From assembly GCF_048403405.1 (NCBI RefSeq), contig NZ_CP183129.1: a DNA stretch of 64,000 bases; one strand, written 5' to 3'. This DNA comes from Escherichia coli (GTDB lineage: Bacteria; Pseudomonadota; Gammaproteobacteria; Enterobacterales; Enterobacteriaceae). The translations under genes and the position numbers were made by a program. The notes below the pieces were generated by a model that worked only from the letters and a program-made list of their open reading frames with translations, was not told the origin of the DNA and ran no database searches. Positions 24,690-47,411 of this stretch are shown piece by piece (the stretch's first letter is position 1; every line of letters starts with the position of its first letter).

Positions 24690-26972
24690 ATGTCCGAGCT
24701 TAATGAAAAGTTAGCCACAGCCTGGGAAGGTTTTACCAAAGGTGACTGGCAGAATGAAGTAAACGTCCGTGACTTCATTCAGAAAAACTACACTCCGTAC
24801 GAGGGTGACGAGTCCTTCCTGGCTGGCGCTACTGAAGCGACCACCACCCTGTGGGACAAAGTAATGGAAGGCGTTAAACTGGAAAACCGCACTCACGCGC
24901 CAGTTGACTTTGACACCGCTGTTGCTTCCACCATCACCTCTCACGACGCTGGCTACATCAACAAAGCGTTGGAAAAAGTTGTTGGTCTGCAGACTGAAGC
25001 TCCGCTGAAACGTGCTCTTATCCCGTTCGGTGGTATCAAAATGATCGAAGGTTCCTGCAAAGCGTACAACCGCGAACTGGACCCGATGATCAAAAAAATC
25101 TTCACTGAATACCGTAAAACTCACAACCAGGGCGTGTTCGACGTTTACACTCCGGACATCCTGCGTTGCCGTAAATCCGGTGTTCTGACCGGTCTGCCAG
25201 ATGCTTATGGCCGTGGTCGTATCATCGGTGACTACCGTCGCGTTGCGCTGTACGGTATCGACTACCTGATGAAAGATAAACTTGCACAGTTCACCTCTCT
25301 GCAGGCTGATCTGGAAAACGGCGTAAACCTGGAACAGACTATCCGTCTGCGCGAAGAAATCGCTGAACAGCACCGCGCTCTGGGTCAGATGAAAGAAATG
25401 GCTGCGAAATACGGCTACGACATCTCTGGTCCGGCTACCAACGCTCAGGAAGCTATCCAGTGGACTTACTTCGGCTACCTGGCTGCTGTTAAGTCTCAGA
25501 ACGGTGCTGCAATGTCCTTCGGTCGTACCTCCACCTTCCTGGATGTGTACATCGAACGTGACCTGAAAGCTGGCAAGATCACCGAACAAGAAGCGCAGGA
25601 AATGGTTGACCACCTGGTCATGAAACTGCGTATGGTTCGCTTCCTGCGTACTCCGGAATACGATGAACTGTTCTCTGGCGACCCGATCTGGGCAACCGAA
25701 TCTATCGGTGGTATGGGCCTCGACGGTCGTACCCTGGTTACCAAAAACAGCTTCCGTTTCCTGAACACCCTGTACACCATGGGTCCGTCTCCGGAACCGA
25801 ACATGACCATTCTGTGGTCCGAAAAACTGCCGCTGAACTTCAAGAAATTCGCTGCTAAAGTGTCCATCGACACCTCTTCTCTGCAGTATGAGAACGATGA
25901 CCTGATGCGTCCGGACTTCAACAACGATGACTACGCTATCGCTTGCTGCGTAAGCCCGATGATCGTTGGTAAACAAATGCAGTTCTTCGGTGCGCGTGCA
26001 AACCTGGCGAAAACCATGCTGTACGCAATCAACGGTGGCGTTGACGAAAAACTGAAAATGCAGGTTGGTCCGAAGTCTGAGCCGATCAAAGGCGATCTCC
26101 TGAACTACGATGAAGTGATGGAGCGCATGGATCACTTCATGGACTGGCTGGCTAAACAGTACATCACTGCACTGAACATCATCCACTACATGCACGACAA
26201 GTACAGCTACGAAGCCTCTCTGATGGCGCTGCACGACCGTGACGTTATCCGCACCATGGCGTGTGGTATCGCTGGTCTGTCCGTTGCTGCTGACTCCCTG
26301 TCTGCAATCAAATATGCGAAAGTTAAACCGATTCGTGACGAAGACGGTCTGGCTATCGACTTCGAAATCGAAGGCGAATACCCGCAGTTTGGTAACAACG
26401 ATCCGCGTGTAGATGACCTGGCTGTTGACCTGGTAGAACGTTTCATGAAGAAAATTCAGAAACTGCACACCTACCGTGACGCTATCCCGACTCAGTCTGT
26501 TCTGACCATCACTTCTAACGTTGTGTATGGTAAGAAAACTGGTAACACCCCAGACGGTCGTCGTGCTGGCGCGCCGTTCGGACCGGGTGCTAACCCGATG
26601 CACGGTCGTGACCAGAAAGGTGCAGTAGCCTCTCTGACTTCCGTTGCTAAACTGCCGTTTGCTTACGCTAAAGATGGTATCTCCTACACCTTCTCTATCG
26701 TTCCGAACGCACTGGGTAAAGACGACGAAGTTCGTAAGACCAACCTGGCTGGTCTGATGGATGGTTACTTCCACCACGAAGCATCCATCGAAGGTGGTCA
26801 GCACCTGAACGTTAACGTGATGAACCGTGAAATGCTGCTCGACGCGATGGAAAACCCGGAAAAATATCCGCAGCTGACCATCCGTGTATCTGGCTACGCA
26901 GTACGTTTCAACTCGCTGACTAAAGAACAGCAGCAGGACGTTATTACTCGTACCTTCACTCAATCTATGTAA
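24690..26972 (+). CDS. pflB: pyruvate formate-lyase (formate C-acetyltransferase 1)
   Basis: 760-aa [18 protein letters not shown]...; glycyl-radical motif RVSGYAVRF near C-terminus. Confidence 0.97.
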
Positions 26973-27012
26973 TTAGATTTGACTGAAATCGTACAGTAAA
27001 AAGCGTACAATA

Positions 27013-27040
27013 AAGGCTCCACGAAAGTGGGGCCTTTTTT
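27013..27040 (+). terminator. pflB intrinsic terminator
   Basis: GC hairpin GGCTCCAC-gaaa-GTGGGGCC followed by TTTTTT, 40 nt after pflB stop. Confidence 0.6.
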
Positions 27041-27165
27041 AGCACGAGAGCCTTTTTTGTCAGCTATCTATACTTTAAGGTGACTGCCAAAACAGACTCG
27101 ACGTAGCCTTCGAGCTGCGCACCAACACGGCCTCAGATGGGCCACATCTGGAGAAACACCGCAAT

Positions 27166-27178
27166 GTCAGTTATTGGT
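27166..27178. repeat. prophage attachment-site core, left copy (attL)
   Basis: GTCAGTTATTGGT identical to 62788-62800; preceded here by the native pflA ATG (27164-27166). Confidence 0.75.
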
Positions 27179-27253
27179 GACATTTTTTGATATCTAATTA
27201 CATGAAATAAAAGGATTTATTTCTTGTCACGTCCACACATTGACCACATCGAC

Positions 27254-27282
27254 AAAAAAGCCCCTCGACTGAGGGGCTTTCT
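27254..27282 (-). terminator. bidirectional hairpin terminator downstream of ogr
   Basis: AGCCCCTC-gact-GAGGGGCT flanked by A-run/T-run. Confidence 0.5.
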
Positions 27283-27290
27283 GTTTGTAA

Positions 27291-27509
27291 TTACATCCAC
27301 ATAATTTGCTGTCCTGATGGCAACGGGTGCGGCCTTACGGCGTGGACTTCTCCCGGCTTCACGATGTATCGCTGTACCGACTCATAAGTGATGAACGTGG
27401 CGCTGCAATTCACGTTCTGGCACTGATGATAACGCTCTTTTGTCGTGTCAGTGATATAGCGACTTGTACGCGCATGTGCGGCATGCTGGCATAAAGGACA
27501 ATGAAACAT
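27291..27509 (-). CDS. ogr: late-gene transcriptional activator Ogr (zinc finger)
   Basis: ORF 27291..27572; MFHCPLCQHAAHARTSRYITDTTKERYHQCQNVNC matches P2 Ogr; start placed at ATG 27509. Confidence 0.9.
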   Translation of the reverse strand: MFHCPLCQHAAHARTSRYITDTTKERYHQCQNVNCSATFITYESVQRYIVKPGEVHAVRPHPLPSGQQIMWM

Positions 27510-27590
27510 CGCGAGCACCTCTTCCGGTTTTGTTGATGGTGCCATTTTAGTTAATTTATCCTTACAAAACAAACAGATAAAACAAAAACA

Positions 27591-28754
27591 TCACTCATCA
27601 TCTTCTGTTTCGTACTCCACATCAGAAAGCCTGACCTCAAGCTCTAAGGACGTCGTGAAGCCGCTATTATTCAGAAAATGTGTCACCTTAGTGATTGTCC
27701 AGTCCTGCTCGTCTATGACGCGCTTAAAGCCAGACACTTTGACCGGTGTTTCCGTGTAAATATCTGCCCGACCGGTAGCCAGGCTGATGGAGAACTCCGC
27801 AACGCCCCGTTGCAGTTTATCCCACTTCGCCTGAGCGGCGCGCATGGCCTGCGCTTTCGTGGCATATACCGTGGTCAGGGCAAAAACGTTGTCAGCCTCA
27901 CCGGCCATGTATTCACCTTCACGCGCTTCCGGTACTTTAGGCGCTTTCTTCTGCCTGACCGGTTTCGCTTTCGGGTGCTCCAGTGCGCGCAGGTGTTTCT
28001 CTTTCTTTTTGCGTTTCAGTTTTACCTTCTGCTTTTGAGGCTTCGGGTCTTTGGTGTGTAGCCATTTTGCCGTTACACCGGTGTAGGCTCCACGGTCAGC
28101 AATCGCAAAATGATGGCGGTCGCCGTCGCTGCGGGTTATGGTGACCTGCGGGATTTTTTTACCGCTGGCCGTCACTCCCTGCCCCGCTTTGAGAAACAAC
28201 AGTTTTCCCATTTTTACCGACACCTCCCCGCCGTTGCGTTCAGCAAGGCGGGTCAGGAATTTTGCATCAGACTCCTGCGACTGGTCGATGTGCGGGATTT
28301 TAATTCCGGCCAGTGACGGCGCGACACTGGCTTCCAGCCTGTTACGGGAGGCTATCACCTCAACAATCGCACCGAGCGTGGTGTCATGCCAGGAGCCTTC
28401 ACTGCGGGAATTGAGCGTCCCGCGAAAATCTGCACTCCGGGCGCGGATGGTAACCACATCCGGCGCGCCCCGGTGTTCAACCTCATCAACGGTAAATTTC
28501 CCTTTGCATACCAGGGCAAAACCTTTCCAGCCGATATACACCGTCAGGACAGCGCCACGAACCGGCAGCCCGACCTGCCCGTCGGCATCGTTCAGTTCAA
28601 TATCAAGCTGGTCAGCCTCAAAGCCCCGGTTATCCGTCAGGGTCATGCTCATCAGACGGTCGCTGATATTGCCGGTAATATCCCTGCTGTCGAGCATCAG
28701 CATGTAATCCGGCGTCAGCGTACTGCCTGCATCAAATGTCAGCGCATCCAGCAT
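27591..28754 (-). CDS. D: tail protein D (late control D)
   Basis: 387-aa ORF; P2 gene order and size. Confidence 0.85.
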   Translation of the reverse strand: MLDALTFDAGSTLTPDYMLMLDSRDITGNISDRLMSMTLTDNRGFEADQLDIELNDADGQVGLPVRGAVLTVYIGWKGFALVCKGKFTVDEVEHRGAPDVVTIRARSADFRGTLNSRSEGSWHDTTLGAIVEVIASRNRLEASVAPSLAGIKIPHIDQSQESDAKFLTRLAERNGGEVSVKMGKLLFLKAGQGVTASGKKIPQVTITRSDGDRHHFAIADRGAYTGVTAKWLHTKDPKPQKQKVKLKRKKKEKHLRALEHPKAKPVRQKKAPKVPEAREGEYMAGEADNVFALTTVYATKAQAMRAAQAKWDKLQRGVAEFSISLATGRADIYTETPVKVSGFKRVIDEQDWTITKVTHFLNNSGFTTSLELEVRLSDVEYETEDDE

Positions 28755-29233
28755 TATCCCGCCCCCGTCATACCCGTGAATCTGGTCGCCATACTGCCAG
28801 CCTTACCGATGAGCGATTCCGCCTGTTTACCGATATCGCCATAAAGCGCGGCCAGTGATTCATCAACGCGGGTGAGCGACAGCGTAAAATCAATTTTCCG
28901 GGGTGTGCCGTCTGCAAAGAAAATACTCCCTGTTTCACTCACCCTGCTGATGACATACATGCCGTAAATCATGCCGGTGCCATCCAGCAACGGCCACGCC
29001 CGACCTTCCTCTGCCATCAGCCTGAGCGTGGTCATCGTCAGCTTTCCGCCTGTCAGTTCGGGATAAAGCACACCGGCAAGCGTAATGTTTTCCTCACCCA
29101 CACCGAGAAACTGAAAGGCATCCCGTTTACCGATACGGGAATTTGACGGCCAGCGATAATCTGATTCACGCTGCATGGTCTGGTGTGGCAGCGTCTGGCG
29201 CATAAAAACAAACATACCTAACGCGAGCATCAT
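28754..29233 (-). CDS. U: tail protein U
   Basis: 159-aa ORF; position between T and D. Confidence 0.85.
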   Translation of the reverse strand: MMLALGMFVFMRQTLPHQTMQRESDYRWPSNSRIGKRDAFQFLGVGEENITLAGVLYPELTGGKLTMTTLRLMAEEGRAWPLLDGTGMIYGMYVISRVSETGSIFFADGTPRKIDFTLSLTRVDESLAALYGDIGKQAESLIGKAGSMATRFTGMTGAG

Positions 29234-29247
29234 TTTTCGTCACCTCC

Positions 29248-31695
29248 TTAACCGTCATGCATCATGCTGGCACGGGCGCGCGCACGTTTATCCCGCTCGT
29301 ATTTTTCGAGCGCATCCTGTAACTGGCGGTCGAGCTGAGTCCCCGGTGCAGTACCGCCCGTCAGACTGATGTGATATTCGTTTTTACTCTGGTCCACATA
29401 AGAGCGGCCAGCCGGTGCCGTAACCGGCTGATAAGCCTGATAGCCTGCATAAGAGCTGGTCGCCGGAATATAACCACCGCTGCCATACGTGGCGGCTTGA
29501 GTTCTGGCGGCGGTCTGGTCAAGTGCGTCAGACTCTTTGTTGATGACCCCGAGCTTTTCCAGTACCCAGTCAATACCGCTGCGCAGTTTGTTGAACGCAT
29601 TAAGCGGCAGCATCAGCGCGTCAGCCAGTGCCTGCCCGAACATGACGCCCGTGTCACGGCAACGATTCAGGGTGTCCTGGGTGGCTTTAACCGGGGCAAT
29701 CAGGTTTTTAAACCACTGCCACGCGGCCTGTAACTTTTCGCCCAGCCAGTCAAACACCGGTTTCAGTGGCGTGAACAGCTCCCCCACCGGCGCAAATGCC
29801 GCTTTCAGCCCTTCAACCACACCGCCAAAGAATGCGCTGACAGGCTCCCAGTATTTACGGATAAGCAACGCCCCGGCGACAATGGCAGCCACCACGGCCA
29901 CAACCGGCCAGCTAATCGCCCCGATGGCCGTCATAATGGCACTACCAACCGTCGTGAAGATTGCACCCATTGCGCCTGCTGCCGCGATGATGGCATTGAT
30001 GCCGGTGATAACCGGCCAGGCTACGAGGCCAATGGCACCGATGACACCAGTCAGCGCCAGTGCACCACCGACAATGATGCCGATGGTTGACGCCAGTGAT
30101 TTGTTTTTCTGTATCCAGCCGTCGAGTTTTAACACATACTTTGTGGCCGTCTGCGTGAGCTTACGCAGCGCGCCTTCCTGCTGGTCAAACAGGTCAGTCC
30201 CCACCGCCTCATAAGCGGACTGAAACTCCTTAAAGTCACCGCCGAGGTTGTCCTGCATGATATTTACCAGCTCCGCGGTCTTCCCGTCTGAGGCTTTAAA
30301 CGCAGCGGTCAGTTTGTCCAGCTTTCCGGTTGAGGCGGCAGTCATCAGCACGGCGGCGGCTGAGCTGGCCTCCTCCCCGAAAATGGTTTTCATGTATTCA
30401 GCCTGCTGGGCAGTACCGAGCCGGTTTTTCTCAAAACTGGCCTGCATTTCTTTCAGAATTGTAAATACTGGTCGGGTGTTTCCCTTGCTATCTGAGGTTT
30501 TCACTCCAAGCTCTTTGAGTGCATCCCATGCTTTTCCCGTCGGTGCCTGCAGGCGACTTAACACGGCACGGCTTCCCGTCCCCGCCATTGAACCGGTAAT
30601 TTTTGCATCATGCAGCGCCCCGACCATTGCGGCGGTTTCTTCAATGCTGACACCGGCATTTTTTGCCACAGGTGCGGCATAGGTCAGCGCATCGCTCATA
30701 CCGTCAAAATCGGCGGCGGTTTTGTTCATCGTCATGGAGAGAACATCCCCGATATGAGCGACCTTATCGTTTGAAAGCTGAAAGGCGGATTTCATCCCCA
30801 TCAGCAGGGCGGCGTTTTCTTCCATCGTGCGACGGTTCGCCAGCGCCATATTCAGCGTGACCGGCGTTGCCGCCTGAATGGCATCAACATCCCCACCGGC
30901 TTTCGCAATAATAATCTGAGCACCGGCTGCATCATCTGCCGAGGCTGCGGTATTGTCGCCGAGCTGGCGCGCCTGCTTGCGGAGCGCGGCCATTTCGGCG
31001 GAGTCTTTTGCCACACCGAGCACGGCCTGCAATTCTGAGTTTTTCTGCGCAAACTCATAACCGGGCATCAGCAACTTAACTCCGGCCATCGTTCCCGCAG
31101 CAGCAATCCCCACACCGGCAGCGCCCACTGAGGCCATATTTCCGGCCAGTTCCTTTCCGGCCTGATAACGCTGTTTGACTGCGTTAAGTTTTGCCTGTTG
31201 CGCACTGACACGCGCCAGCGCGTCACGCTGCCGGTTAAGCTGGGCGGTGGTTTCACTGATACGGTTTTTCAGTCCCTGCTCATCATGTGCAAGATTGCGG
31301 GTATTAATTCCCACAACGGCCAGTTCCCGCTGCTGGCGTTTAACGGAATCCGTCAGGCGGTAATATTTCGCCTGTAAGTCCTCCGCCGCACGCTTCGCGG
31401 ATTCCAGCACTTTCGCCTTAGCACGTGTCGGACGTTCGGTGTTTTTAAACTGTGTTGCAAGGGCTTCGGCCTCCTGCCGTGCCTTTTCAAGTGCATGACC
31501 AGTCACGGCGAGCTGTGCACTGGTCTTGCGAAATCCCTCAATACGGGATGCGTGACCGTTCAGCTCGCGCAGTGATTTTTGTGTTTCCCGGATATCCCCC
31601 GACAGCGATTTGCTCGCTGTGCGGATGGATTTAAACGGGCGGGATGCCTGGTCAACAGCCCTGAGCAATACCTGTAATTTTACATTGTTACTCAT
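29248..31695 (-). CDS. T: tail tape-measure protein T
   Basis: 815-aa Ala/Gly-rich coiled-coil protein with TM stretch; P2 T size. Confidence 0.88.
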   Translation of the reverse strand: MSNNVKLQVLLRAVDQASRPFKSIRTASKSLSGDIRETQKSLRELNGHASRIEGFRKTSAQLAVTGHALEKARQEAEALATQFKNTERPTRAKAKVLESAKRAAEDLQAKYYRLTDSVKRQQRELAVVGINTRNLAHDEQGLKNRISETTAQLNRQRDALARVSAQQAKLNAVKQRYQAGKELAGNMASVGAAGVGIAAAGTMAGVKLLMPGYEFAQKNSELQAVLGVAKDSAEMAALRKQARQLGDNTAASADDAAGAQIIIAKAGGDVDAIQAATPVTLNMALANRRTMEENAALLMGMKSAFQLSNDKVAHIGDVLSMTMNKTAADFDGMSDALTYAAPVAKNAGVSIEETAAMVGALHDAKITGSMAGTGSRAVLSRLQAPTGKAWDALKELGVKTSDSKGNTRPVFTILKEMQASFEKNRLGTAQQAEYMKTIFGEEASSAAAVLMTAASTGKLDKLTAAFKASDGKTAELVNIMQDNLGGDFKEFQSAYEAVGTDLFDQQEGALRKLTQTATKYVLKLDGWIQKNKSLASTIGIIVGGALALTGVIGAIGLVAWPVITGINAIIAAAGAMGAIFTTVGSAIMTAIGAISWPVVAVVAAIVAGALLIRKYWEPVSAFFGGVVEGLKAAFAPVGELFTPLKPVFDWLGEKLQAAWQWFKNLIAPVKATQDTLNRCRDTGVMFGQALADALMLPLNAFNKLRSGIDWVLEKLGVINKESDALDQTAARTQAATYGSGGYIPATSSYAGYQAYQPVTAPAGRSYVDQSKNEYHISLTGGTAPGTQLDRQLQDALEKYERDKRARARASMMHDG

Positions 31696-32115
31696 TCGTG
31701 TTTCCGCTTCGCCGGAGCGCCTTTTCGCGCCATGTGATGAGTTCGGTCAGGCTCATGGGATACAGTTCTGATGGCGGCCAGTGAAATATCACTGCCACAT
31801 CCGCCATCAGGTCATCGACCGAGAGATTTTTCGGAAACGTCACTGCACCGAGTTCGGTGACAAAAAACCGACCACCTTACCGGCCAGCGCCACAAGGTCA
31901 GGCAGTTCCAGTGCGGCGACTTCCTGCTCGGTCAGCATCGGTGCCGTCATGCGCGGCAACACCTTAATCAGTGCATCGACTTCGGAGTTTGCGACCGCTG
32001 CCAGACTGACACCGCGCAGCGTCCCGGCACTGGGTTTCATCAGCGTGACCTGTTCGATAACCTGCTCACCACGTTTGACCGGATTGTCCAGGGTAATCAC
32101 ATTTTCTTTGTTCAT
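31688..32115 (-). CDS. E: tail assembly chaperone E and frameshift product E+E'
   Basis: E = 31840..32115 (91 aa). Slippery heptamer T_TTT_TTG on the minus strand at 31867-31861; the -1 frame continues to TAA at 31690-31688, overlapping the T start. Confidence 0.8.
31861..31867 (-). other. programmed -1 ribosomal frameshift site (E/E')
   Basis: mRNA heptamer UUUUUUG about 20 nt before the E stop; the -1 frame stays open for 59 codons. Confidence 0.7.
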
Positions 32116-32171
32116 GGTTTTCTCACTTATGAATCGGGGTTAACCGGTCAGCCAGGCTGACCGGATGAAAA

Positions 32172-32690
32172 TCACAGGCCGATATTGCGGCGGTGTTGCT
32201 CCAGCCGGTCGACGCCGTTCACCTTCTCAATCATGTTGATGGTGTCGATTTCGACCAGCTCCTTACCGTCCATCGTCAGCCGGAAATAGGTGCAGACCAC
32301 GGAGATTTTCGACTCGGTGTCTTCTCCCTGTTTACCCTCGCCGGTGTCGATTTCTTTCTGACGTCCACGCATGACCACCTCGACGGCCACCGTTTCGCCG
32401 GTATCGTCACGCTGGTAAGAGCCTGCAAAACGAATCGGCACAGCATCCACACCGGTTGCGGCGTAAAGCTCCCAGATAACCGAATCCGGGAAGCCACCCA
32501 GCGACCACTCCATTGACAGCGCATCGTCATCAAGGCCGAGGTCTACCGGTGCGCTGCCGTTCATTCCCGCACCGCGATAGTTTTCGAGCTTACGGGTCAG
32601 TTTTGGCAGCGTGACGGACTTTGCAACGCCCTGATAGCTGTAGCCGTTCAGAAAGACGTTCATTAATTTGAGTTTGCGCGGCATTGCCAT
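32172..32690 (-). CDS. FII: tail tube protein FII
   Basis: 172-aa ORF; matches P2 FII. Confidence 0.9.
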   Translation of the reverse strand: MAMPRKLKLMNVFLNGYSYQGVAKSVTLPKLTRKLENYRGAGMNGSAPVDLGLDDDALSMEWSLGGFPDSVIWELYAATGVDAVPIRFAGSYQRDDTGETVAVEVVMRGRQKEIDTGEGKQGEDTESKISVVCTYFRLTMDGKELVEIDTINMIEKVNGVDRLEQHRRNIGL

Positions 32691-32702
32691 CGGTCAGGCT
32701 CC

Positions 32703-33893
32703 TTAATTGCTGTTAACCGAGGTGACCAGATTTGCCAGGTATTTATCGGTAATACGCTGGCGCAGGGTCAGGTTTTCGAGAGGAGGCACCGGTGTATAGT
32801 CGTAGTCGATATACAGTTTTCCGGCCTTGAGGGTTTCCGCATCGTTGGATTCTTCGCTGAACCAGCAGGTCGCATCCACGATATAGCCGTTTGTTTTCAG
32901 CTCACGGAATTTGGCATTGATACCGTCAACGATGTCGCGAATCAGCGTTGCGGTGATGGGCTTGTCCACCGCCCACATGTGCGCCTCAGCCATCGTGTCG
33001 GCCAGCACCTGCGCGGTGCGGGTGTAGTTTTCAAAGAGGAACAGCGGGTCATCAGAGCAGGTACGGTTACCCCAGAAGCGGAAACCGTCGCGGCGAATCA
33101 GCGTAGTGACGCCTGACTCGTTAAGCAGGTCAGCATCGGTGCCGGACTCCTGCAAATCCCAGAATACAGATGCACTGATGCCGGTAACACCGTTCACCCC
33201 AACGTTGGACAGCGTTTTATGCCAGCCCTGCTCCTGGTCGATTTTAGCGCGCAGCCCCAGCGCACGGGCAGTGGCATACGCGGTGGCGGTGGTACTGGTG
33301 ACCGTATCCCATGCGAGGAAATCCGGCCAGATGACCATCAGCTCACGCTGGCTGAAATTCTGGCGGTAGGCTTTCACCTCAGAAATGGTTTTACAGCCCC
33401 ATGCGCTGATATACCCGAAAGCGCGCAGCTTCTGACAGACTGATGCCAGTGCAACAGCCACCTCTTTGGTATCCAGTCCCGGCACGCCGAGAATACGCGG
33501 TTTAACACCGGTTACCGACTCCGCCGCCAGCAGGGCTTTCAGTCCGGTGTACTGACCGTTTTCGTCGGTGGTACCGATGATATTGGAAACGGTCTGCGCA
33601 AGTTTCGTTTCTTCGTCGTCGCCGGTGCCGTCTTCCACGCGCACAACAACGGTGACCGGTTTTGACTGGTCAGCGATGGCCTGTAACGACGCCGCCAGCG
33701 TGCCTTTTTTACCGGCCTTTGCAATTGCGCTCTGCACATTGGTAATCAGCACCGGTTTATTGAGGGGGAAGGTTTCCGCATCTGCATCGCTGGCCGTGCA
33801 GACCATGCCGACAATGGCAGTGGATACGGTGGAAATGACGCGGGTGCCGTCGTTAATCTCCAGCACCTGCACGCCGTGATGATAGTCACTCAT
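32703..33893 (-). CDS. FI: contractile tail sheath protein FI
   Basis: ORF 32703..34007; start placed at ATG 33893 (MSDYHHGVQVLEINDGTR...), 396 aa. Confidence 0.9.
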   Translation of the reverse strand: MSDYHHGVQVLEINDGTRVISTVSTAIVGMVCTASDADAETFPLNKPVLITNVQSAIAKAGKKGTLAASLQAIADQSKPVTVVVRVEDGTGDDEETKLAQTVSNIIGTTDENGQYTGLKALLAAESVTGVKPRILGVPGLDTKEVAVALASVCQKLRAFGYISAWGCKTISEVKAYRQNFSQRELMVIWPDFLAWDTVTSTTATAYATARALGLRAKIDQEQGWHKTLSNVGVNGVTGISASVFWDLQESGTDADLLNESGVTTLIRRDGFRFWGNRTCSDDPLFLFENYTRTAQVLADTMAEAHMWAVDKPITATLIRDIVDGINAKFRELKTNGYIVDATCWFSEESNDAETLKAGKLYIDYDYTPVPPLENLTLRQRITDKYLANLVTSVNSN

Positions 33894-34353
33894 CCGTCTA
33901 ACTCCGTGGTTAATGGGTGAGTGGTATTTTCTGTTGTGCAGAGCATGAGACGCTATTTGACCTGGCTGGTCAGTGGATGAAACAACAGATAAAGAAAAGG
34001 CGGACAATCCGCCCGCCTGTCATGATTTGTACTCACTTATTTCCCGACTGACAATTTACATAGCCAAAACGCTATCAAATCTGACAGTCTGCTTTGAGCG
34101 AGGAGCGGAAGTTAAGGGGCGGTTTAGTATCTAACATGATCTATATGAAATAGTGATTCTTGGCGTATTGCTAATACAACCCCGATTTGATGTAACTCTT
34201 GTCCACTTTCATCTAACTTCCTCTTGTTCAGGTTCATTTTTAACTGCTAATATGCAGTATATAAAGGAACATGGGTTTACCGTTGTAAGATGCTGCTGAA
34301 AGGTAAGCATAATTATATTGTTAGGTGTCTTTTTATTTTTAAAGGCTTTAAAC

Positions 34354-35460
34354 ATGTCTAAAACACGCGATGATTTCAGCTCAAAAACTGTAAGAGCTCT
34401 AGCACTACGGGCTGGTTATAGGTGCTCATTCCCCGGTTGTAATCAGCTTACAGTTGGCCCCAGTGATGAATCCTTAACATCTATCACAAATATTGGGGTA
34501 GCTGCGCACATTCATGCCGCAGCTCCTGGGCCATTAGCAAGACGATATGATCCTAATCAAACACCAGATGAAAGGAAAGATATAAATAATGGCATCTGGA
34601 TGTGTGTTAATCACAGCGTTGAAATTGATAGAGATGAAATTAGATATACAGCAGAAATTCTTAAAGAAATGAAGAAAGCCCACGAAGAAGAGATTAAAAA
34701 AGAGGTGAGCAATGGTTCTTCATCAACCAAACATAATGATTTCATTGCAATAGGTATAGACATTATCGTTTTCGGAGAGCTTACCGGAATCTCAACCAAT
34801 GAGTGGACTATAAAATTTGCAAACTTCTTTACTGGCGATTTATCTAAGTTAATATCTTTCAACGAAAGATTCCACTCCATCCCTACCGAAGAAAAATTTA
34901 TTCTAGTTAATCAACTTGGTGAGGGGCGTTTGTTATCAGCACCAATAAAATTAAATAAATTACCAGATAGCTATGAAGTAATCGTCCCTGTTGAAATAGA
35001 CACTCCGCGCATCAATTGCAATAGCCTCCCAATGGATTTAGATATTTTCACGACAGGCGATTTATTTGTAAATAGTTCTGGTGATATAGCTACGATATCG
35101 GGGTTTGAAGCTTTACCACAAAAAATATATACTTCCCTTTCCACCATTAGAGGTGAGATTTATTCCCATCCAACATTGGGTTCCAGAATAAGACAGTTCT
35201 TCCATGACTTTGAAGGAACAATGTGGCTAGACAAATTAGTTAAATTAGAAGTTATACGCTTATCTTGTATACCAATTTTTGATTCAATCACAAAAAACAA
35301 ATACACTCCATTACATTGTGTAAAAAATGTCAAAAATATTCGGGTGATACCAACTGAATATAAAGATAGCAAATTACCTATTGAGTTCACCCTTGATATT
35401 GAAGGTTTCGGCATCTGGTCCAAAGAAATAAGTGTTTTCTCACCTAAATACGATGAATAA
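34354..35460 (+). CDS. accessory (moron) protein with N-terminal HNH-nuclease-like motif; function unknown
   Basis: ORF 34318..35460 (TTG); probable ATG start 34354 with AAAGG SD. Motif RCSFPGC...AAHIHAAAPG...NNGIWMCVNHSVEID fits the HNH pattern; AT-rich; at the P2 Z/fun variable position. Confidence 0.6.
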   Translation: MSKTRDDFSSKTVRALALRAGYRCSFPGCNQLTVGPSDESLTSITNIGVAAHIHAAAPGPLARRYDPNQTPDERKDINNGIWMCVNHSVEIDRDEIRYTAEILKEMKKAHEEEIKKEVSNGSSSTKHNDFIAIGIDIIVFGELTGISTNEWTIKFANFFTGDLSKLISFNERFHSIPTEEKFILVNQLGEGRLLSAPIKLNKLPDSYEVIVPVEIDTPRINCNSLPMDLDIFTTGDLFVNSSGDIATISGFEALPQKIYTSLSTIRGEIYSHPTLGSRIRQFFHDFEGTMWLDKLVKLEVIRLSCIPIFDSITKNKYTPLHCVKNVKNIRVIPTEYKDSKLPIEFTLDIEGFGIWSKEISVFSPKYDE

Positions 35461-35932
35461 AATTGAAGTTCTTGAACCGCTATATTTGGCTCCGGTATTT
35501 ACTCCGTGAGTGGTATCCTAGGGCCCTGTGCGGAGGATTTCATTGTAATGCTCATACGCTGTAGCCAGGTTCATGTTTCTTCAGCAAGGCCATTTGGGCT
35601 AGTGGCCTGCTCCCCATTGCTCCACACAAAAAATTATTCGTTACGTCCGCTCCTGGCACACAGTAGACATCGAGAGACAGCTTCGAGCGATAATCAGAAG
35701 TTCGCAATTGTCATCACCCAAAAGTTGTTTATAACTTGTAGCAAGGTGCATTGTTCAACGTTGAGTTGGTCAAGTTCAGTTAATGATCGGACGATATCTC
35801 ACTCTGCCCAATAGCACATCTGTTTTACGGGAAGTGAGTTTCAACATCACGAGCTTTGTTAGTAAACATCACTTATTTATTAAGAATATGTTTCATAGAA
35901 CAGGGCCGGAGAACTTAATTTCATATTCTAAA

Positions 35933-35954
35933 AAGTGATGCGCAGACATCACTT
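35933..35954 (-). terminator. hairpin downstream of the 353-aa cargo gene
   Basis: AAGTGATG-cgcaga-CATCACTT about 30 nt after the stop at 35984. Confidence 0.35.
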
Positions 35955-35983
35955 TAAACTTTTTAAAGCGCGAAAACCCTACG

Positions 35984-37045
35984 TCAGAATTTGACAGTAG
36001 GAACGGTTGGCCAGATTCTAGCAATAGACTTAAACATAGTCTCCACAATATATTCGAGAACCTCATCATCAGGCTCTTTCATTAATGCTTTTACTTTATT
36101 TATTCTATCCTGAAGTGAAGGGTGAGATTTTGAAAAACCCCAGTTGTTTTTACCTAACATAGTAACGCTGAATAATGCACAGTATATAGAAAGTCTTCTT
36201 TTCCTGCTCACCAACACACGGTCATACATAGACTCTTCACAGTAATTATCTATATGGTCAAGGATGAATTTATTTGCAAACTCATCACATGAGAACTCTT
36301 CATTATGAGCTTGTTCTTGTGTGAATTCATTCATATCATAACTGGTACCTTCCTGCTGATGAATGATATGTCGGACTTCATGCAAAAATGCCCAAGCAGC
36401 AGCAATAATTGCTAATTCAGCTGTTGCTCTTTTAACTGGTTCGATTTTACTGTCAGGCATGGTGCCAGGTTCAGGAATTCCTATTGGTAGTGGTTTTTCA
36501 TCCGGTACCTCATCTTTAGCCGTGTTTTCAAAAGCGCAGATTAACTGTTCAAAGTTTACGAAGTCTGCCGAACTGAAATCAGCAAGTTCTTCCTGTAGCT
36601 CCTCGAGTAAAACATGTAATTCTGACTCGGTTGAGACTAATGATATTTTCTTTGAGTCAAAAAGATCTAAAATAGAATCCCTTTTATCGATAATGTCTTC
36701 AATTTTTTTATTTTGCTCAGTGTTTATTGCTTCGTAGCCCGCCATTGCAGCAAATGTTCCTATCCAGAACGTGCGCAAAACACGATGATTGAAGCGGATA
36801 AATCGATACATCCCCGCATCAAAAATAAATTTACCGTCTGTATGATTATCGCTATGATTTTGGAAGGTCATGTTAAATTTAGACCAGAACTCATCCAGTT
36901 CATTCTGACGCTCTGGAATAGAGGCTAAAAACATTTTTCTTACGCTGTCCTGAACTGTTTTATCTTCATTATGCTCTTCAAACATTTGCTCACCTATATT
37001 GCTGTTAATTTTATCTAATGATGAACCGAGTGGGTTGTTTACCAA
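35984..37045 (-). CDS. accessory (moron) protein with HEXXH motif (putative zinc metallopeptidase-like); function unknown
   Basis: ORF starts at TTG 37045; more likely ATG 36985 with AGGTGA SD. Motif FLHEVRHIIH; AT-rich; convergent with the HNH gene. Confidence 0.5.
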   Translation of the reverse strand: MVNNPLGSSLDKINSNIGEQMFEEHNEDKTVQDSVRKMFLASIPERQNELDEFWSKFNMTFQNHSDNHTDGKFIFDAGMYRFIRFNHRVLRTFWIGTFAAMAGYEAINTEQNKKIEDIIDKRDSILDLFDSKKISLVSTESELHVLLEELQEELADFSSADFVNFEQLICAFENTAKDEVPDEKPLPIGIPEPGTMPDSKIEPVKRATAELAIIAAAWAFLHEVRHIIHQQEGTSYDMNEFTQEQAHNEEFSCDEFANKFILDHIDNYCEESMYDRVLVSRKRRLSIYCALFSVTMLGKNNWGFSKSHPSLQDRINKVKALMKEPDDEVLEYIVETMFKSIARIWPTVPTVKF

Positions 37046-37248
37046 GCCTCATGTTACATGTTTTTTGCTTTCCGAATATTTAAGCGTTAGAAGCAAGTAG
37101 GAAAAACGTAGAGCAGTTAACCAAGGCTTTCTACAGGCAGATTAACATAACTTGGTCAGGAATGTCCGCTCTTGGCACATAGCGGACTGTCAGATTAGGC
37201 TTTACTCTGTGCTATAGATATGTAAGCTCACACCAGAGATCATACAAC

Positions 37249-37776
37249 TTATTGCGGCATTTCCGGCCATTCGGGATTTGCAGGATCCACACGACTGACC
37301 AGAACGCTGTAGCGTTCCCATGCTTCCAGTCGGCTGCGTTCCTCATCCGTCGCCATATTCAGCCTGACAGCGCGTTCCAGCGGCAAAATCACGGATTCAG
37401 CTTCGGAAAGTAAAGCTGCCTTTTGTGATTCTGCCTGTTGCTCCTGTTCATCTGCCGTATAAATCCGCTTAATCACGGCACCATCCTTAAACATCCATTT
37501 ACCTGAGTCATCAGCACGTCGGTTGGAGGTAATATCAGGAACCTCGACAACGCTGAAACCTTCAGGGTTAAGCGTTGAAGCATCTCTGGTGATGCCGACA
37601 ATTATATTATTCTCGTCGTAAACAATCTTTATCGTGTCTTCCTGAAAATTACTTACTTCCTCATACCAGTTTTTTCCCTCTTCGGACCATAACCAGATAA
37701 CATCAAAATTTTTTGTCAGTTGATATTGGGCAACAGTTTTTGGATTACCCGCAGTAATATTTTTTAAATGCTGCAT
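37249..37776 (-). CDS. G: tail fiber assembly protein G
   Basis: 175-aa ORF; matches P2 G. Confidence 0.88.
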
Positions 37777-37779
37777 AAA

Positions 37780-39825
37780 TTACACCTGTGCGACGTTATA
37801 CCATGTGCCATTGATGTATTTTTGTATTGGCCTGAATACTGCGGGGTCATCACCATCGACTTCACCGACAATACCAAGCCCGGTAATTACGTGCCCTGCT
37901 TTCTCATACATCACCCCTTTCTGCATGGTCTGGACAACACGTGTGCCAAGTCTGATATCTCTCACATAGCGGGAATCAAAGTTACCGTAATCCGAGGGAT
38001 TAACACGCCCCGTAATATTTATGGTCTTATTACTTTGAATGCTTCCGGAAACAAAGCGCATAACATGGACGTTATTAGCATAAACATCCAGATTACCATC
38101 GCCATTTTGTTTAAATCCGGTGTCGTTATCACCAAGAACAATAGAGTTCCCACCCAACGCGTTATTCGTGCCAAGTGCCAGCCCGCCATCAATCCTGGCA
38201 CCATTACCAACAGACACAACTCCTGTTCTTAAGTTGATGCCGAATGGCCTTAATGGCCCAATATCTCCATTTTCACCCTCATTTTCTCGTGTAGGAATGA
38301 TATACAGGTTTTCTTCAGAACGGCGAAAAATAGCACCAAAAGATGAATTAAATATCCTCAGCGCATTGACTGTAGATATTTTTACTTCACTGCTGAAAAG
38401 GGCTTTAACAAGAACATACAGAGCATCCCATTTAAGATTCATCAGGTCTTTTGTTGTGGTGCTCTGGCGACTTCTCCATTTGAAATATTCATTGCCGTTA
38501 TCCCCCGTTTCAAACCACATGTATGAATCAGTGTCACCATCGGCATCATTTTTAAATCCAATCTTCGCCCAGTCAGTATTTCGAATCCAGGCAAGGATTG
38601 AGTCGTTTTCAAAAGTAAGTCCACCGGACAAGGTATCGCCATTTTTTTGCACGGCGTTCCCGGCTCGGTTTACCGTTTCCTGTAAACCGAGATATTCGAT
38701 AACGGCGGCAACGGTCGATTTAGCCAGAATATCCCGCCCGACTTTTGTCAGGGTCGCCAGGCTGGCAACATCATTCCCCGTAAAATACGGAAACCTGTCT
38801 GCCGCAGTAGCAAGCCCCGCCAGCGCCGTCAAAGTGGCATCTTTCGGTTGCTTACCCGCAAGCGCATTAGTCATGGTGGTAGCAAAATTCGGGTCATTGC
38901 CCAGCGCCGCCGCCAGCTCGTTCAGCGTATTCAGTGCGTCAGGCGACGAGTCTACAAGGGCGGCAATCGCGGCCATAACGAAAGCCGTGTTTGCGATCTG
39001 AGTATTATTCGTTCCCTGTCGCGCAGTTGGCGTCGTTGGCGTTCCGGTCAGTGCAGGGCTGTTTAATGGCGCTTTCTTGTTCGTTTCATCCATTACCGTC
39101 TTAACGGCTTTTGGTGTTGCGGCGAGCGTTTCAGACGTGCTGTTGGTCGCACTACTGAGCTGGACAAGGCCTTTTCGCGCTATGGTGGCGTCCTGTGCGG
39201 TATATTTCCCGTTAGCAAGGTCATACGCGGCCTTTACCGCTTTCGGCGTTGCGGCCAGTGTTTCAGACGTGCTGTTGGTCGCACTGCTTAACTGAGTAAA
39301 ACCTTTTGCGGTCAGCGAGGCGTCAGGGTGACGTCGTGACTGTTCATGTTCTGCAATTTTGTCATCAACGTAATCCTGCGTTGCCATCACCGTTGTGGTG
39401 TCAATGGTCAGCTCCACTGAGGCCACACTGCTGACGATGATGACCATGCGGCAGGTCTGCGAACGCCCTGAGCCTTCGGCAAGGGCTGGCTTATAACTTT
39501 CGGCCATGTTCGCCACGGCAATTAGCGTTCCCGCATCATCGTACAGGCCAAGTTCACGCATCCAGAAACCGCCCACCTCCGGCGGAATAACCAGCTCTGC
39601 GATAATATAATTACTGTTTCGTTTGTCCTGGCTGATTTTGTTCAGCGCATGTCGCCAGACTTCGTGGATAAGCCCGGTCTGTCCGGCATCCGGGACAGGC
39701 AATTTACCACCGCCATCCCCGACGGCCATCGTGGTAATGTTGACCTTCCGCCCTCCCGGTGCGGTTGCCGCTGCCAGCTTTGCTGCACCGGCAGTGGTGA
39801 TAACGGTTTTGAATTTTGTGCTCAT
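37780..39825 (-). CDS. H: tail fiber protein H
   Basis: 681-aa ORF; conserved N-terminus MSTKFKTVITTAGAAKLAAA; internal repeat QLSSATNSTSETLAATPKAVK. Confidence 0.9.
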   Translation of the reverse strand: MSTKFKTVITTAGAAKLAAATAPGGRKVNITTMAVGDGGGKLPVPDAGQTGLIHEVWRHALNKISQDKRNSNYIIAELVIPPEVGGFWMRELGLYDDAGTLIAVANMAESYKPALAEGSGRSQTCRMVIIVSSVASVELTIDTTTVMATQDYVDDKIAEHEQSRRHPDASLTAKGFTQLSSATNSTSETLAATPKAVKAAYDLANGKYTAQDATIARKGLVQLSSATNSTSETLAATPKAVKTVMDETNKKAPLNSPALTGTPTTPTARQGTNNTQIANTAFVMAAIAALVDSSPDALNTLNELAAALGNDPNFATTMTNALAGKQPKDATLTALAGLATAADRFPYFTGNDVASLATLTKVGRDILAKSTVAAVIEYLGLQETVNRAGNAVQKNGDTLSGGLTFENDSILAWIRNTDWAKIGFKNDADGDTDSYMWFETGDNGNEYFKWRSRQSTTTKDLMNLKWDALYVLVKALFSSEVKISTVNALRIFNSSFGAIFRRSEENLYIIPTRENEGENGDIGPLRPFGINLRTGVVSVGNGARIDGGLALGTNNALGGNSIVLGDNDTGFKQNGDGNLDVYANNVHVMRFVSGSIQSNKTINITGRVNPSDYGNFDSRYVRDIRLGTRVVQTMQKGVMYEKAGHVITGLGIVGEVDGDDPAVFRPIQKYINGTWYNVAQV
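39101..39311. repeat. imperfect direct repeat (about 80 bp, two copies) inside tail fiber gene H
   Basis: Copies at 39101-39179 and 39233-39311 share an identical 26-nt core GTTTCAGACGTGCTGTTGGTCGCACT. Confidence 0.8.
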
Positions 39826-39835
39826 TATTCCTCAC

Positions 39836-40366
39836 TTATCCGGGGTAAACCGTAATTACATCGCCGTCATAAGCCACACCACCGACGAACAGGTAGCCGG
39901 GAATGTCCCGGGTAATGTTCAGGCCAATAAGGTGGCGGCTTGCAGGTTTGGCATCAGCAATCAGCCGTTCCATTTCCTGATACATTGCCTCTGTGATACC
40001 GCTTTCCAGTACACCAATATCAAGCCGGAAGGTGCCGGGCGGGTCACTGGTTTCCCACCACTCCGTCACGTTGATGAGATAGCCCAGCGGCTCCACCACA
40101 CGCCGGATTGCACCTATAGTGCCTTTATGACAGTGGATGAAATAGGCATCGCGAATAACGGCGCGTTTGGTCGCTTCCGGCCACTTTTCATCCCATCTGT
40201 CGACCGAAAACGCCCACGCCAGCCACGGCAGCAGATTTGCCGGGCAGGTGTCCGGGTTCCACAGCTCACGAATACTGACCGGCGTTTTTTCAATTTCCGC
40301 ACAGGCTTTTGCAGCGGCGACTTCAAGCGGTGATGAGCCGGTCGGCAGCAGGCGCGAATCACTCAT
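39836..40366 (-). CDS. I: baseplate assembly protein I
   Basis: 176-aa ORF; P2 order. Confidence 0.85.
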   Translation of the reverse strand: MSDSRLLPTGSSPLEVAAAKACAEIEKTPVSIRELWNPDTCPANLLPWLAWAFSVDRWDEKWPEATKRAVIRDAYFIHCHKGTIGAIRRVVEPLGYLINVTEWWETSDPPGTFRLDIGVLESGITEAMYQEMERLIADAKPASRHLIGLNITRDIPGYLFVGGVAYDGDVITVYPG

Positions 40367-41267
40367 CCGAGCCTCCGGTCACGACGCGGTATTCGGTACA
40401 GAAAGACGCCTGCGTACTGTTGAGCACGATGTCGGCCAGCGGTGCAGCCAGTTCGACACGCTGCACGCCTTCCACATGCAAAGCGGCATAAATGGCAGAC
40501 AGTCGGATGTCGCGCCCCAGCCGGTGCTGTGCCGTGATATACGCTTCCAGTTTTTTCACGGCGGCAGCGCGAATGGGTTCGCTTTTGGGGCCAGGGTAAA
40601 GGTAAAGCATGGCATTTATCTGGTATTCAACGATGGCGGCAGACTGCACGGTCACACGGTCGGCCACCGGTCTGACGTCCTCGCCATTCAGGGCGTTGCG
40701 CACCACAGCCAGCAGGTCTTCAGATGCCACACCGTTATTTTCACGTGACAGCACAGAGATGGTGACACAGGCCGGAGACGGACTGGTGACAGAGATATCC
40801 GCGACACGCCCGTCGGCACTGCGACCATGATACTGATAGGCTCCCACCGACCCGGCGACGCTTAAGCCTTCAAACGCCTGCTGAATACGCAGACGATAAT
40901 CGGTGTCAGACTCCATCACTGCCGGTGTCGGCGGGATAGTCGAATCATCTGCCGGGGTGATAGTCAGGCGCGTGGTGTTGTAATTGGCACCAATCACATC
41001 AAGGTCATTACCGGCTGCACAGGCCAGCATCACCGCCCGTGCAGCCTCATTCACACGCTGACGCCAGATAAGCTCGCGATACGCATTTTCCTCCAGCAGT
41101 TTGACGAGAGGCTCGGATTCCAGCGTCAGGGTACGGGCGACCGCCTCCTGCTGGTCTTCCGGGTAAAGGGAAATCAGTGTCGCCTTGCGTTCGGCAAGAA
41201 TGGTTTCAAAGTCCAGCTCCTCGACCACATCCGGTGCGGGTAGCTGGTTCAGGTCGATAATCGGCAT
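40359..41267 (-). CDS. J: baseplate protein J
   Basis: 302-aa ORF; P2 order. Confidence 0.87.
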   Translation of the reverse strand: MPIIDLNQLPAPDVVEELDFETILAERKATLISLYPEDQQEAVARTLTLESEPLVKLLEENAYRELIWRQRVNEAARAVMLACAAGNDLDVIGANYNTTRLTITPADDSTIPPTPAVMESDTDYRLRIQQAFEGLSVAGSVGAYQYHGRSADGRVADISVTSPSPACVTISVLSRENNGVASEDLLAVVRNALNGEDVRPVADRVTVQSAAIVEYQINAMLYLYPGPKSEPIRAAAVKKLEAYITAQHRLGRDIRLSAIYAALHVEGVQRVELAAPLADIVLNSTQASFCTEYRVVTGGSDE

Positions 41268-41271
41268 GGTT

Positions 41272-41619
41272 TCAACTCACAGGGATGGTTAATGAAAGTG
41301 GCTGGCCGGTGTCGTTGTGCTGGCCGGTTAACGTGACCGTCATTCGCCCGTCAAAGCTGCGCGCCGTGGTAACGGATGACAGGGTGACGCGGGGTTCCCA
41401 TTTCAGCACCGCCATGTAACAGGCGACCTTAATCTGCAACTCAAGCGCCGGGGTCTGCGGCTGGTCAATCATTGACGCCAGCAACGAGCCGTAATCACGA
41501 CGCATCACCCGTGAGCCGACCGGCGTGCGCAGGATATCGCCGATACTCTGGCTGATATGCTCAAGGTCAGTGACAGTCAGGCCATCACTGCGATTCATTC
41601 CGAGATAACGCGCTGTCAT
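41272..41619 (-). CDS. W: baseplate wedge protein W
   Basis: 115-aa ORF; P2 order. Confidence 0.85.
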   Translation of the reverse strand: MTARYLGMNRSDGLTVTDLEHISQSIGDILRTPVGSRVMRRDYGSLLASMIDQPQTPALELQIKVACYMAVLKWEPRVTLSSVTTARSFDGRMTVTLTGQHNDTGQPLSLTIPVS

Positions 41620-42257
41620 TTTGTCCCCTGCGTCCAGTTGTCACCTGACTTAACACCACCGTGACCGTGGTCATCCACCTGAACGCCGTTAGAAGTGAAT
41701 TTCCCGTCGGTATGCTCGATGTTGCCGTGCATCTTCCCGCCCTTCTGCACTTCCAGCGTGCCGGTAATCAGCCTGTTGGTGCAGACCACCTCCGGTGTGT
41801 CCAGGGTGACGCGGGTTGATGCTTTCACCATGACCACCGGCACCGTGGCAGTAACAGAATCAGAAGCCGTCACGCTGGCTGTTTTAATTCCGCTTACCGT
41901 GAGTGCACTGGTTTCGGGTTCATATTCAATCACCGCCCCGTCAGGGAAACGGATATGCAGGGCATCCGCCGACGCAGACGGCGCGGGGTTATCGCCGGAA
42001 TAAATCCCCGGCAGAACGAACGCCGTGTCGAGTTCACCGCCCACGGCCAGAATCAGCACCTGCTCCCCCACGGAAGGTGCCCACCATGTGCGCGAACGAC
42101 CGGCACGATGGGTCAGCCACTGAAGCCAGTCAGTGCACATGCCGCCGGTCTGCACACGGCAGCGACCGGCGTTAAGGTCGGTTTCGACGATAATGCCGGT
42201 GCGAATCATGTTGCGCAGTGCGCGCGCGAGTTCCTGAATATTTGCGAGAGTGTTCAT
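41616..42257 (-). CDS. V: baseplate spike protein V
   Basis: ORF 41616..42275; start placed at ATG 42257 (MNTLANIQELARAL...). Confidence 0.87.
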   Translation of the reverse strand: MNTLANIQELARALRNMIRTGIIVETDLNAGRCRVQTGGMCTDWLQWLTHRAGRSRTWWAPSVGEQVLILAVGGELDTAFVLPGIYSGDNPAPSASADALHIRFPDGAVIEYEPETSALTVSGIKTASVTASDSVTATVPVVMVKASTRVTLDTPEVVCTNRLITGTLEVQKGGKMHGNIEHTDGKFTSNGVQVDDHGHGGVKSGDNWTQGTK

Positions 42258-42340
42258 GCATGTGAGATTGCACAATATATAAAAGTTATGCTATCTGGAT
42301 TCATTTGTAGAACTACCAGACAACATTCAAGGAGAGCGTA

Positions 42341-43126
42341 ATGGTCAGCTATAATGTGACTAATGTGTGGGGGCTAATCGTTTTTTTCCTTTGTAGCTTT
42401 GCAGTATTAGCATTTTTTAGCTTTGGTAAAAGTAACCTTATGAGGCTTATTGCACATTATTTCAATTTTGGATATTCAGACAAAAAATTAAAAAGACTTG
42501 ACCGCGAGTGGCGCGACATTCAACTATTTAAAATAATTAATGGAATCAATGTATCAGGCATTGAAAATGTGAGAATGATACAGCAGGGACTGATTGATGG
42601 AAAACTAAAAACATCGTATTTTTTCCTTACTCGCATCTGGGGTGACATAACAAAACCACCACACATAATTAAAACAATAATTGTAATTCTGGCCAGTATT
42701 TTTTACATTCTCCTCGCATGTTACATACACAACGAACAATCCGTTATAGTAAGGGATGCCATAGGCATACCATATAAAAACATGATGTACTATGTTTATA
42801 GTGACAAAGTTCTTTTATCCTTCAAAAATAAAGCAGTTGAATTTAATAAAACTTATAGCCTTGCCGATTGCAAGAGACTGCAAAACGTATTTATAAAAGA
42901 CACACTTCCTGAGATCGCCTGCAATAAGCTCTTACAGCTAAACGAGGAGGACTCCGAATGGTTAAGCCAGGAGATTAAAGATAATAACAGTCACAAAAAA
43001 GCATTATTAATACTATCCCTCGTCTATTTCACTTCAGGTCTGGTTATATTCCTGTCATATACAAAATTCTTTTACGCCAATAAGAAGGTTTTAGAATACA
43101 AAGCATCAAATAAAAATCACTCATAA
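42341..43126 (+). CDS. accessory membrane protein (3 predicted TM helices), function unknown
   Basis: 261-aa ORF with strong SD AAGGAGAG; very AT-rich; opposite strand to flanking V and S; at the P2 orf30 position. Confidence 0.6.
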   Translation: MVSYNVTNVWGLIVFFLCSFAVLAFFSFGKSNLMRLIAHYFNFGYSDKKLKRLDREWRDIQLFKIINGINVSGIENVRMIQQGLIDGKLKTSYFFLTRIWGDITKPPHIIKTIIVILASIFYILLACYIHNEQSVIVRDAIGIPYKNMMYYVYSDKVLLSFKNKAVEFNKTYSLADCKRLQNVFIKDTLPEIACNKLLQLNEEDSEWLSQEIKDNNSHKKALLILSLVYFTSGLVIFLSYTKFFYANKKVLEYKASNKNHS

Positions 43127-43197
43127 ACCTCTAAACATTGAGCGACCAGCATGGCCGCTCAATGTTTAATTGCGCATCAGCCTCTGCCTGGATAAAA

Positions 43198-45056: not shown

Positions 45057-45070
45057 GGTGTTTACTCCGT

Positions 45071-45849: not shown

Positions 45850-45852
45850 GCG

Positions 45853-46565: not shown

Positions 46566-46664
46566 GACTACCTCTGAAAAGTCGGGCGGTGGACGCCGGT
46601 GCAGTGTCAGGTGATTCACCCTCACTGACCGGCGTGCCGCCCTGGCGCGGGGCGCATTCGGTTG

Positions 46665-47408: not shown

Positions 47409-47411
47409 CGG

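Follow-up and report, generated by a model that had tools for sequence, protein, structure and literature searches.

A probable hybrid attachment site of a P2-like prophage in the first codons of Escherichia coli pflA, and the reciprocal junction at which the gene is rebuilt

Positions 27041-27290 of the stretch of Escherichia coli DNA analysed here (64,000 nucleotides, hereafter the window) very probably form one of the two hybrid attachment sites of a P2-like temperate prophage of the pro147/P24A7b type. Recombination by a tyrosine integrase at a 13-bp core within codons 1-5 of pflA would have created both junctions. At the junction next to ogr the host half would consist of the pflB terminator, the pflB-pflA intergenic region, and the ribosome-binding site and ATG of pflA; the phage half would be the P arm of attP, comprising the IHF-site position, two Int arm-type repeats and a bidirectional intrinsic terminator. 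The 8-codon frame that straddles this junction, which an earlier note on the same DNA had singled out together with an antisense link to ogr, is in all likelihood a passive recombinant, the automatic reciprocal product of integration, a judgement that we make jointly with that of the segment as a whole as an integration scar.

In alignment with K-12, host sequence runs through position 27178, diverges beyond it and picks up again at 62789; the matching part at the ogr side is the entire pflB-pflA intergenic region plus codons 1-5 of pflA. Both junctions carry the 13-bp core, GTCAGTTATTGGT, followed by two mismatches and then CATT, so that the same core stands at both ends of the prophage, and the K-12 attB is continuous across it. 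The attB is likewise uninterrupted in about 93% of complete E. coli genomes. A 16-mer around the start codon has two matches in the 64-kb window, exactly the two junctions, against 0.05 expected. The corresponding attP is present in free phages: the P24A7b and vB_YpM_46 records have the order int, leader, core, P arm, hairpin and ogr, in which the int stop is followed by 31 nt, an ATG opening a 27-codon ORF that ends in SVIGDIF and a stop, an A/T-rich stretch, two repeats, the hairpin and then ogr. The gene for a tyrosine integrase, int, is adjacent to the second junction, and the integrase region is 98-99.8% identical to those of pro147, pro483, P24A7b, P24E6b, S164, D8, 11W, 12W and several Yersinia pestis phages. 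The features are collected in Table 1.

Table 1. Features of the two prophage-host junctions and their surroundings, in window coordinates
Feature	Position	Strand	Remarks
pflB (formate C-acetyltransferase), host gene 5' of the junction	24690..26972	+	760-aa ORF; PGAP pflB in the identical strain GN02461
pflB intrinsic terminator	27012..27040	+	11-bp stem, GAAA loop, U6 tail
Host pflB-pflA intergenic DNA	27041..27163	+	native pflA 5' UTR, Shine-Dalgarno GGAG at 27150-27153; identical to K-12
Micro-ORF (MSVIGDIF, stop)	27164..27190	+	ATG 27164, TGA 27188-27190; 8 codons
att core copy 1, GTCAGTTATTGGT, crossover region	27166..27178		13 bp
P2-like (Peduovirus, pro147/P24A7b-type) prophage body	27179..62788	-	35.6 kb; ogr, D, tail genes to cox, C, int
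A/T-rich segment at the P2 IHF-site position	27188..27221		from P2 annotation; near-identity to P2 from about 27203
Predicted Int arm-type sites, P arm	27225..27252		near-identity to P2 'Int P arm', 1 mismatch in 28
Bidirectional intrinsic terminator	27257..27288		between ogr and att site; hairpin 27257-27280 (earlier note, 27254-27282)
ogr, late-gene activator, Ogr/Delta zinc finger	27291..27509	-	72 aa; Pfam Ogr_Delta, E=1e-21
C-type immunity repressor gene	61298..61609	+	upstream of int, co-oriented; PGAP HTH protein; 'C protein' in phage records
Tyrosine integrase, int	61703..62698	+	331 aa; Pfam Int_N + Phage_integrase
Promoter-like match TTAACC-16-CATAAT	62661-62688		faces pflA; overlaps Int arm-type repeats
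Predicted Int arm-type repeats, P' arm	62680..62697		GTCCATA twice, 11 bp apart; overlaps int 3' end
Phage start codon and leader	62730..62788	+	ATG + 19 codons, in frame with pflA codon 2, directly after int
pflA'	62730..63527	+	265 aa (native, 246 aa); PGAP pflA, WP_000067979.1; Pfam Radical_SAM + Fer4_12
att core copy 2, GTCAGTTATTGGT	62789..62801		13 bp
Native pflA terminator	63537..63566	+	first terminator-like site 3' of int on the + strand

The phage half of the ogr-side junction could be read against P2. Window positions 27203-27299 are nearly identical to the annotated P-arm stretch of the P2 reference record, which lists on the ogr side of attP a rho-independent terminator (24265-24288), an Int P-arm site (24293-24320), an IHF site (24324-24357) and the core (24356-24383); this near-identity gives the segment putative arm-type Int sites and a putative IHF site. 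The direct repeats of the P arm, GTCCACA (27231) and GACCACA (27242), are 11 bp apart, and the combined arm-repeat pattern occurs in the 64 kb at the two att arms only, against 0.01 expected. The junction thus has more in it than the earlier note had allowed in placing only a hairpin between the micro-ORF and ogr, since the P arm lies there, with its IHF-site position and two Int arm-type repeats. That note's label for the junction, attL, suits the orientation of the window; in P2 nomenclature the ogr-side junction, with the P arm, is attR.

The order of terminator, Int arm repeats, IHF position and core is that of the ogr-side junction of P2, and as in P2 the Int repeats of the other arm overlap the 3' end of int, with int and ogr convergent. 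The differences lie in the core sequence and the integrase, and hence in the target: here the core is within the first codons of a host gene, and where P2 has its Cox-binding stretch there is an open reading frame that is joined to pflA. As far as sequence can tell, all the features that define a P2-type attachment junction are present.

Direct reading of the + strand around the micro-ORF, ctGGAGaaacaccgcaATG TCA GTT ATT GGT GAC ATT TTT TGA, agrees with the frame MSVIGDIF of the earlier note and with its stop, and the native pflA start has indeed been kept at the junction, the match to K-12 covering the GGAG Shine-Dalgarno sequence, the ATG and codons 1-5. Comparison with attP accounts for the remainder: host codons 1-5 are joined to the last three codons and stop of the 27-codon phage ORF. 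An 8-codon ORF is in itself statistically unremarkable; what is non-random is the identity of this one to the native 5' end of pflA and the repetition of the 13-bp core at 62789-62801. An RNA hairpin at 27163-27184, considered as a possible occluder of the micro-ORF start codon, was rejected, being merely the inverted repeat of the att core.

Phages of this type are already known, deposited and named, and the hairpin is a known terminator. The integrase is at least 99% identical to those of pro147/pro483, Peduovirus P24A7b/P24E6b, Yersinia phage vB_YpM_46 and their relatives, and these phages also share the attP, including the 27-codon ORF, the P arm and the terminator. The clade is discrete in the phage collection: the closest integrase outside it, that of P88, is 61% identical and is associated with a different attP, and the many Peduovirus-type integrases listed are about 55% identical. 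Our literature search found no paper on pflA as a P2-like attachment site or on a swap of its 5' end, and the paper on pro147 gives no att site for that prophage.

It is in their cargo that these relatives differ; here it consists of a retron Ec48-type pair, a DUF7380 protein and a Lit-family protein. Part of it lies between the replication and portal genes, at the position of old/tin in P2 (52406-54294 and 54806-56644, both on the - strand), and is annotated by PGAP in the identical strain as a reverse transcriptase, a 'retron Ec48 family effector membrane protein' and then a 612-aa DUF7380 protein. Two more proteins are encoded in a second spot, 34354-36985, which lies between the tail-fibre assembly and tail sheath genes and corresponds to Z/fun in P2: a DUF2634 protein (34354-35460, + strand) and a Lit-family phage exclusion protein (35984-36985, - strand). 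Beyond the prophage, at 63600-63740, the order in the identical strain is pflA, a LysR-family regulator fragment (annotated as incomplete) and ycaM, whereas in K-12 ycaK comes directly after pflA; the difference suggests that a deletion has occurred beside the att site region.

The int-pflA junction, which the earlier note did not mention, is where the phage rebuilds pflA. All DNA 5' of pflA codon 6, including whatever promoter serves the gene, is left at the ogr-side junction, and the consequence of integration at the int side would be a pflA that is intact but parted from its own promoter and start codon. In their place, as the sequence is read, the phage provides an in-frame substitute, and pflA appears intact as the longer pflA'. 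Codon 20 of the leader (AAG, 62787-62789) takes the place of the native ATG of pflA, its last base being the first base of core copy 2. Read directly, the sequence contains no ATG, GTG or TTG in frame between the phage ATG and native Met32, so that in E. coli the phage ATG is needed; the Shine-Dalgarno sequence before it, GAAG at a spacing of 4 nt, is weak. An extension of this kind is plausibly tolerated, since natural PflA homologues with N-terminal extensions of similar length exist, one of them (L008) directly after pflB.

Phage 21 and e14, in icd, and the phages that target tRNA genes reconstitute the target gene upon integration, replacing its 3' end. The pflA prophage resembles them in supplying a substitute gene end, in leaving the gene intact in the lysogen and in the small remnant at the other junction. 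It differs from these classic cases in that there promoter and start codon are untouched, whereas here it is the 5' end that is swapped, and promoter, Shine-Dalgarno sequence and start codon are displaced; it is this replacement of the 5' end that accounts for the existence of an orphan promoter and a micro-ORF at the ogr side.

How the rebuilt gene might be transcribed is suggested by its surroundings. The lysogenic operon of P2 consists of C and int and is transcribed from Pc, which is annotated in the P2 record. Here C, int and pflA' are co-oriented, and no terminator-like site was found between int and pflA' on the same strand. Read-through from C-int would be the simplest source of pflA' mRNA. 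Another might be the promoter-like match at 62661-62688, which by itself does not rise above chance; the -10-like hexamer in the arm site could be a phage-supplied promoter, occluded by Int binding. The hexamer is the spacer between the P'-arm repeats: E. coli has CATAAT there, and the relatives in Yersinia, Serratia and Rahnella have a perfect TATAAT.

The junctions are common. The int-leader-pflA junction is found in 404 of 5426 complete E. coli genomes (about 7%) and the pflB-ogr junction in 392 of the same 5426; the dozen or so genomes by which the counts differ may hold prophages rearranged or truncated at the ogr end. Int was aligned against one genome per species, which gave 11 loci. 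A homologue of Int lies directly 5' of pflA in E. albertii, Yersinia alsatica, Y. vastinensis, Y. nurmii, Serratia proteamaculans, Rahnella ecdela and an Enterobacterales MAG, with 62-100% identity and leaders equal in length; the same int-leader-pflA layout, with an Int 79% identical, was found separately in Citrobacter portucalensis. The leader ATG is 31 nt past the int stop in all but Serratia, and in Serratia and Rahnella the native ATG is present after the leader. Three Int homologues, those of Erwinia psidii and two Rahnella species, are not adjacent to pflA. A 99%-identical fragment of the integrase in a Clostridia assembly, on a Terrisporobacter mayombei contig of 513 bp and very low coverage (0.84), is almost certainly contamination.

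A scan of IMG/VR with Int gave 80 near-identical loci; almost all of them are cut off at the stop codon of int, and no diverged attP was among them. When the 62 N-terminal residues of the fusion were used in a word-index protein search, most of the matches were short PflA fragments, and only P0001 gave a phage junction; P0018 is a native pflB-pflA locus, and near P0049 there is no integrase.

That pflA' has lost the native promoter, Shine-Dalgarno sequence and ATG, and starts behind so weak a ribosome-binding site, could be taken to mean that integration simply inactivates the gene: the fusion would not be made, or not be active, lysogens would be without active pyruvate formate-lyase, and the ORFs at the junctions would be scars. 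We consider this unlikely. The reading frame of pflA' is intact and annotated as pflA; the junction is carried by the 404 E. coli genomes just mentioned, and an in-frame leader with its start codon has been kept in eight other species; nothing resembling a terminator separates int from pflA'; and the natural homologues with extended N-termini likewise argue against loss of function. Reconstitution of pflA by the prophage is the reading that we retain.

At the ogr-side junction, the earlier note had proposed that the stranded pflA promoter drives transcription antisense to ogr, coupling anaerobic induction of pfl to events at the prophage end. The geometry of this proposal stands: the host promoter region, Shine-Dalgarno sequence and ATG are all directed at the 3' end of ogr, which is on the - strand and ends at 27291. 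The regulatory coupling is not supported, and what lies between is one reason. The hairpin consists of GCCCCUC, a 4-nt loop and GAGGGGC, with a folding energy of -20.3 kcal/mol on the + strand and -23.7 on the -, z-scores below -4 on both strands and no shuffled sequence as good. Its U-rich tails are UUUCUGUU on the + strand and UUUUUUGU on the -, giving a stable GC-rich hairpin with a U-tract on each strand, as expected of an intrinsic terminator, and a terminator scan detects it on the + strand. In the P2 record the same hairpin, identical in sequence in the alignment, is labelled 'rho-independent terminator for ogr transcript and F operon'; a search of Rfam gave only sub-threshold terminator-like matches. 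What had been described as only a hairpin before ogr is a P2-annotated terminator, U-rich on both sides, that is expected to stop most + strand transcripts.

It resembles the bidirectional terminators found between convergent genes in having a GC-rich stem flanked by an A-tract and a T-tract, and differs from them in that its + strand function would here pass from the C-int transcript to transcripts from the host pflA promoter. In the free phage the hairpin lies between the convergent int and ogr genes and is the only terminator-like element available to the C-int transcript, which suggests a real function on the + strand. The + strand U-tract is interrupted (UUUCUGUUUGU), so that some read-through is likely. 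Annotated as a terminator, U-rich on both strands and placed between convergent genes, the hairpin can nevertheless be expected to end most + strand transcripts, and hence most of those from the pflA promoter would be expected to stop before ogr. After integration this same + strand terminator would face the stranded host promoter; the resulting transcript would be a short RNA with at most 8 codons translated, ending mostly at 27280-27288, and only the fraction that reads through would be antisense to ogr. Such read-through RNA might have a small or weak regulatory effect on ogr. We saw no sign that the sequence is adapted to, or conserved for, a cis-antisense role: the P arm and terminator are almost base for base those of P2, which integrates at other loci, and the host side is unaltered.

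The other reasons concern the promoter itself, usually assumed to be in the pflB-pflA intergenic region. A consensus scan found no sigma-70 promoter in 27041-27160; its one hit, at 26983-27011, was set aside, being upstream of the pflB terminator and no more than chance would give. The aerobic mid-log map of K-12 transcription start sites, in which coverage of this locus is very low, has none in the intergenic region (Kim et al. 2012). The sole start sites that it assigns to pflA, 950923 and 950929 (7 and 5 reads), lie within pflB, at about positions 26544 and 26538 of the window, 620 and 626 nt 5' of the pflA ATG.

As to anaerobic control, a passage of PMC8683613, citing Sauter & Sawers 1990, describes expression of PFL-AE (pflA) as constitutive, and in a genome-scale FNR study the operon is focA-pflB, without pflA. 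The pflB terminator, whose fold (27000-27060) has an energy of -21.3 kcal/mol and a z-score of -2.9, would block FNR-driven transcripts coming from upstream. With pflA reportedly constitutive and so strong a terminator before it, anaerobic coupling is unlikely. An imperfect U-tract makes some read-through plausible, but in view of the annotated bidirectional terminator, the P2-like phage side and the absence of a consensus promoter in 27041-27160, we think it very improbable that functionally relevant antisense transcription across ogr places the prophage end under the control of anaerobic pfl induction.

The leader, the phage part of pflA', calls for separate comment. Its frame is open in all nine lineages, the +1 frame being closed in all nine and the +2 frame in seven. 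One reverse-strand frame over the leader (62730-62789) is also free of stops in nine of nine lineages, which weakens the argument from openness alone. Differences between lineages are distributed over the three codon positions as 113/169/195, a weak pattern, against 89/32/119 in the neighbouring int codons. The leader region also matches the Cox-binding stretch of P2 in position, which points to a constraint at the level of DNA. We had considered the open frame as proof of selection and have downgraded it: the geometry of the intasome also needs a fixed spacing, and the reverse frame is equally open. On balance the comparison favours selection against stops over selection for a particular peptide, in a manner suggestive and not decisive.

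That the micro-ORF or its parent 27-codon phage ORF is a functional small peptide, or a translated leader that regulates RNA downstream, is scarcely credible: the native pflA Shine-Dalgarno sequence and ATG are kept and the leader frame is open across diverged lineages, as such a role would have it, but the micro-ORF has only 8 codons, its tail, DIF and stop, is fixed by attP beside the core and shows no conservation beyond what the att site explains, the distribution of leader differences is, unlike that of int, not that of a conserved peptide, the native ATG after the leader in two lineages makes the leader dispensable there, and Rfam holds no family match.

In the integration reading little importance attaches to the micro-ORF or to an antisense link to ogr; they are the expected scar of a site-specific integration, insulated by a known terminator. 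The reciprocal junction is the more notable. The target, pflA, is of central importance to anaerobic metabolism, and a prophage common in E. coli is inserted in its first codons; the prophage appears to keep the gene whole by giving it a new start codon and leader while removing its own promoter. Annotators should expect a PflA of 265 aa in these strains. More tentatively, we put forward a broader view, in which a clade of P2-like integrases in Escherichia, Citrobacter, Yersinia, Serratia and Rahnella swaps the 5' end of pflA. In the roughly 7% of complete E. coli genomes concerned, the activase might then be made only as a phage-host fusion, transcribed from the prophage by C-int read-through or from the element at 62661-62688, with the displaced host promoter capped by the phage bidirectional terminator and activation of PFL dependent on the state of the prophage. 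If this is true, it would be a clear case of gene reconstitution at the 5' end, rarer than the familiar cases at the 3' end; and if PflA in lysogens does depend on phage transcription, the state of the prophage would affect mixed-acid fermentation in a considerable share of strains.
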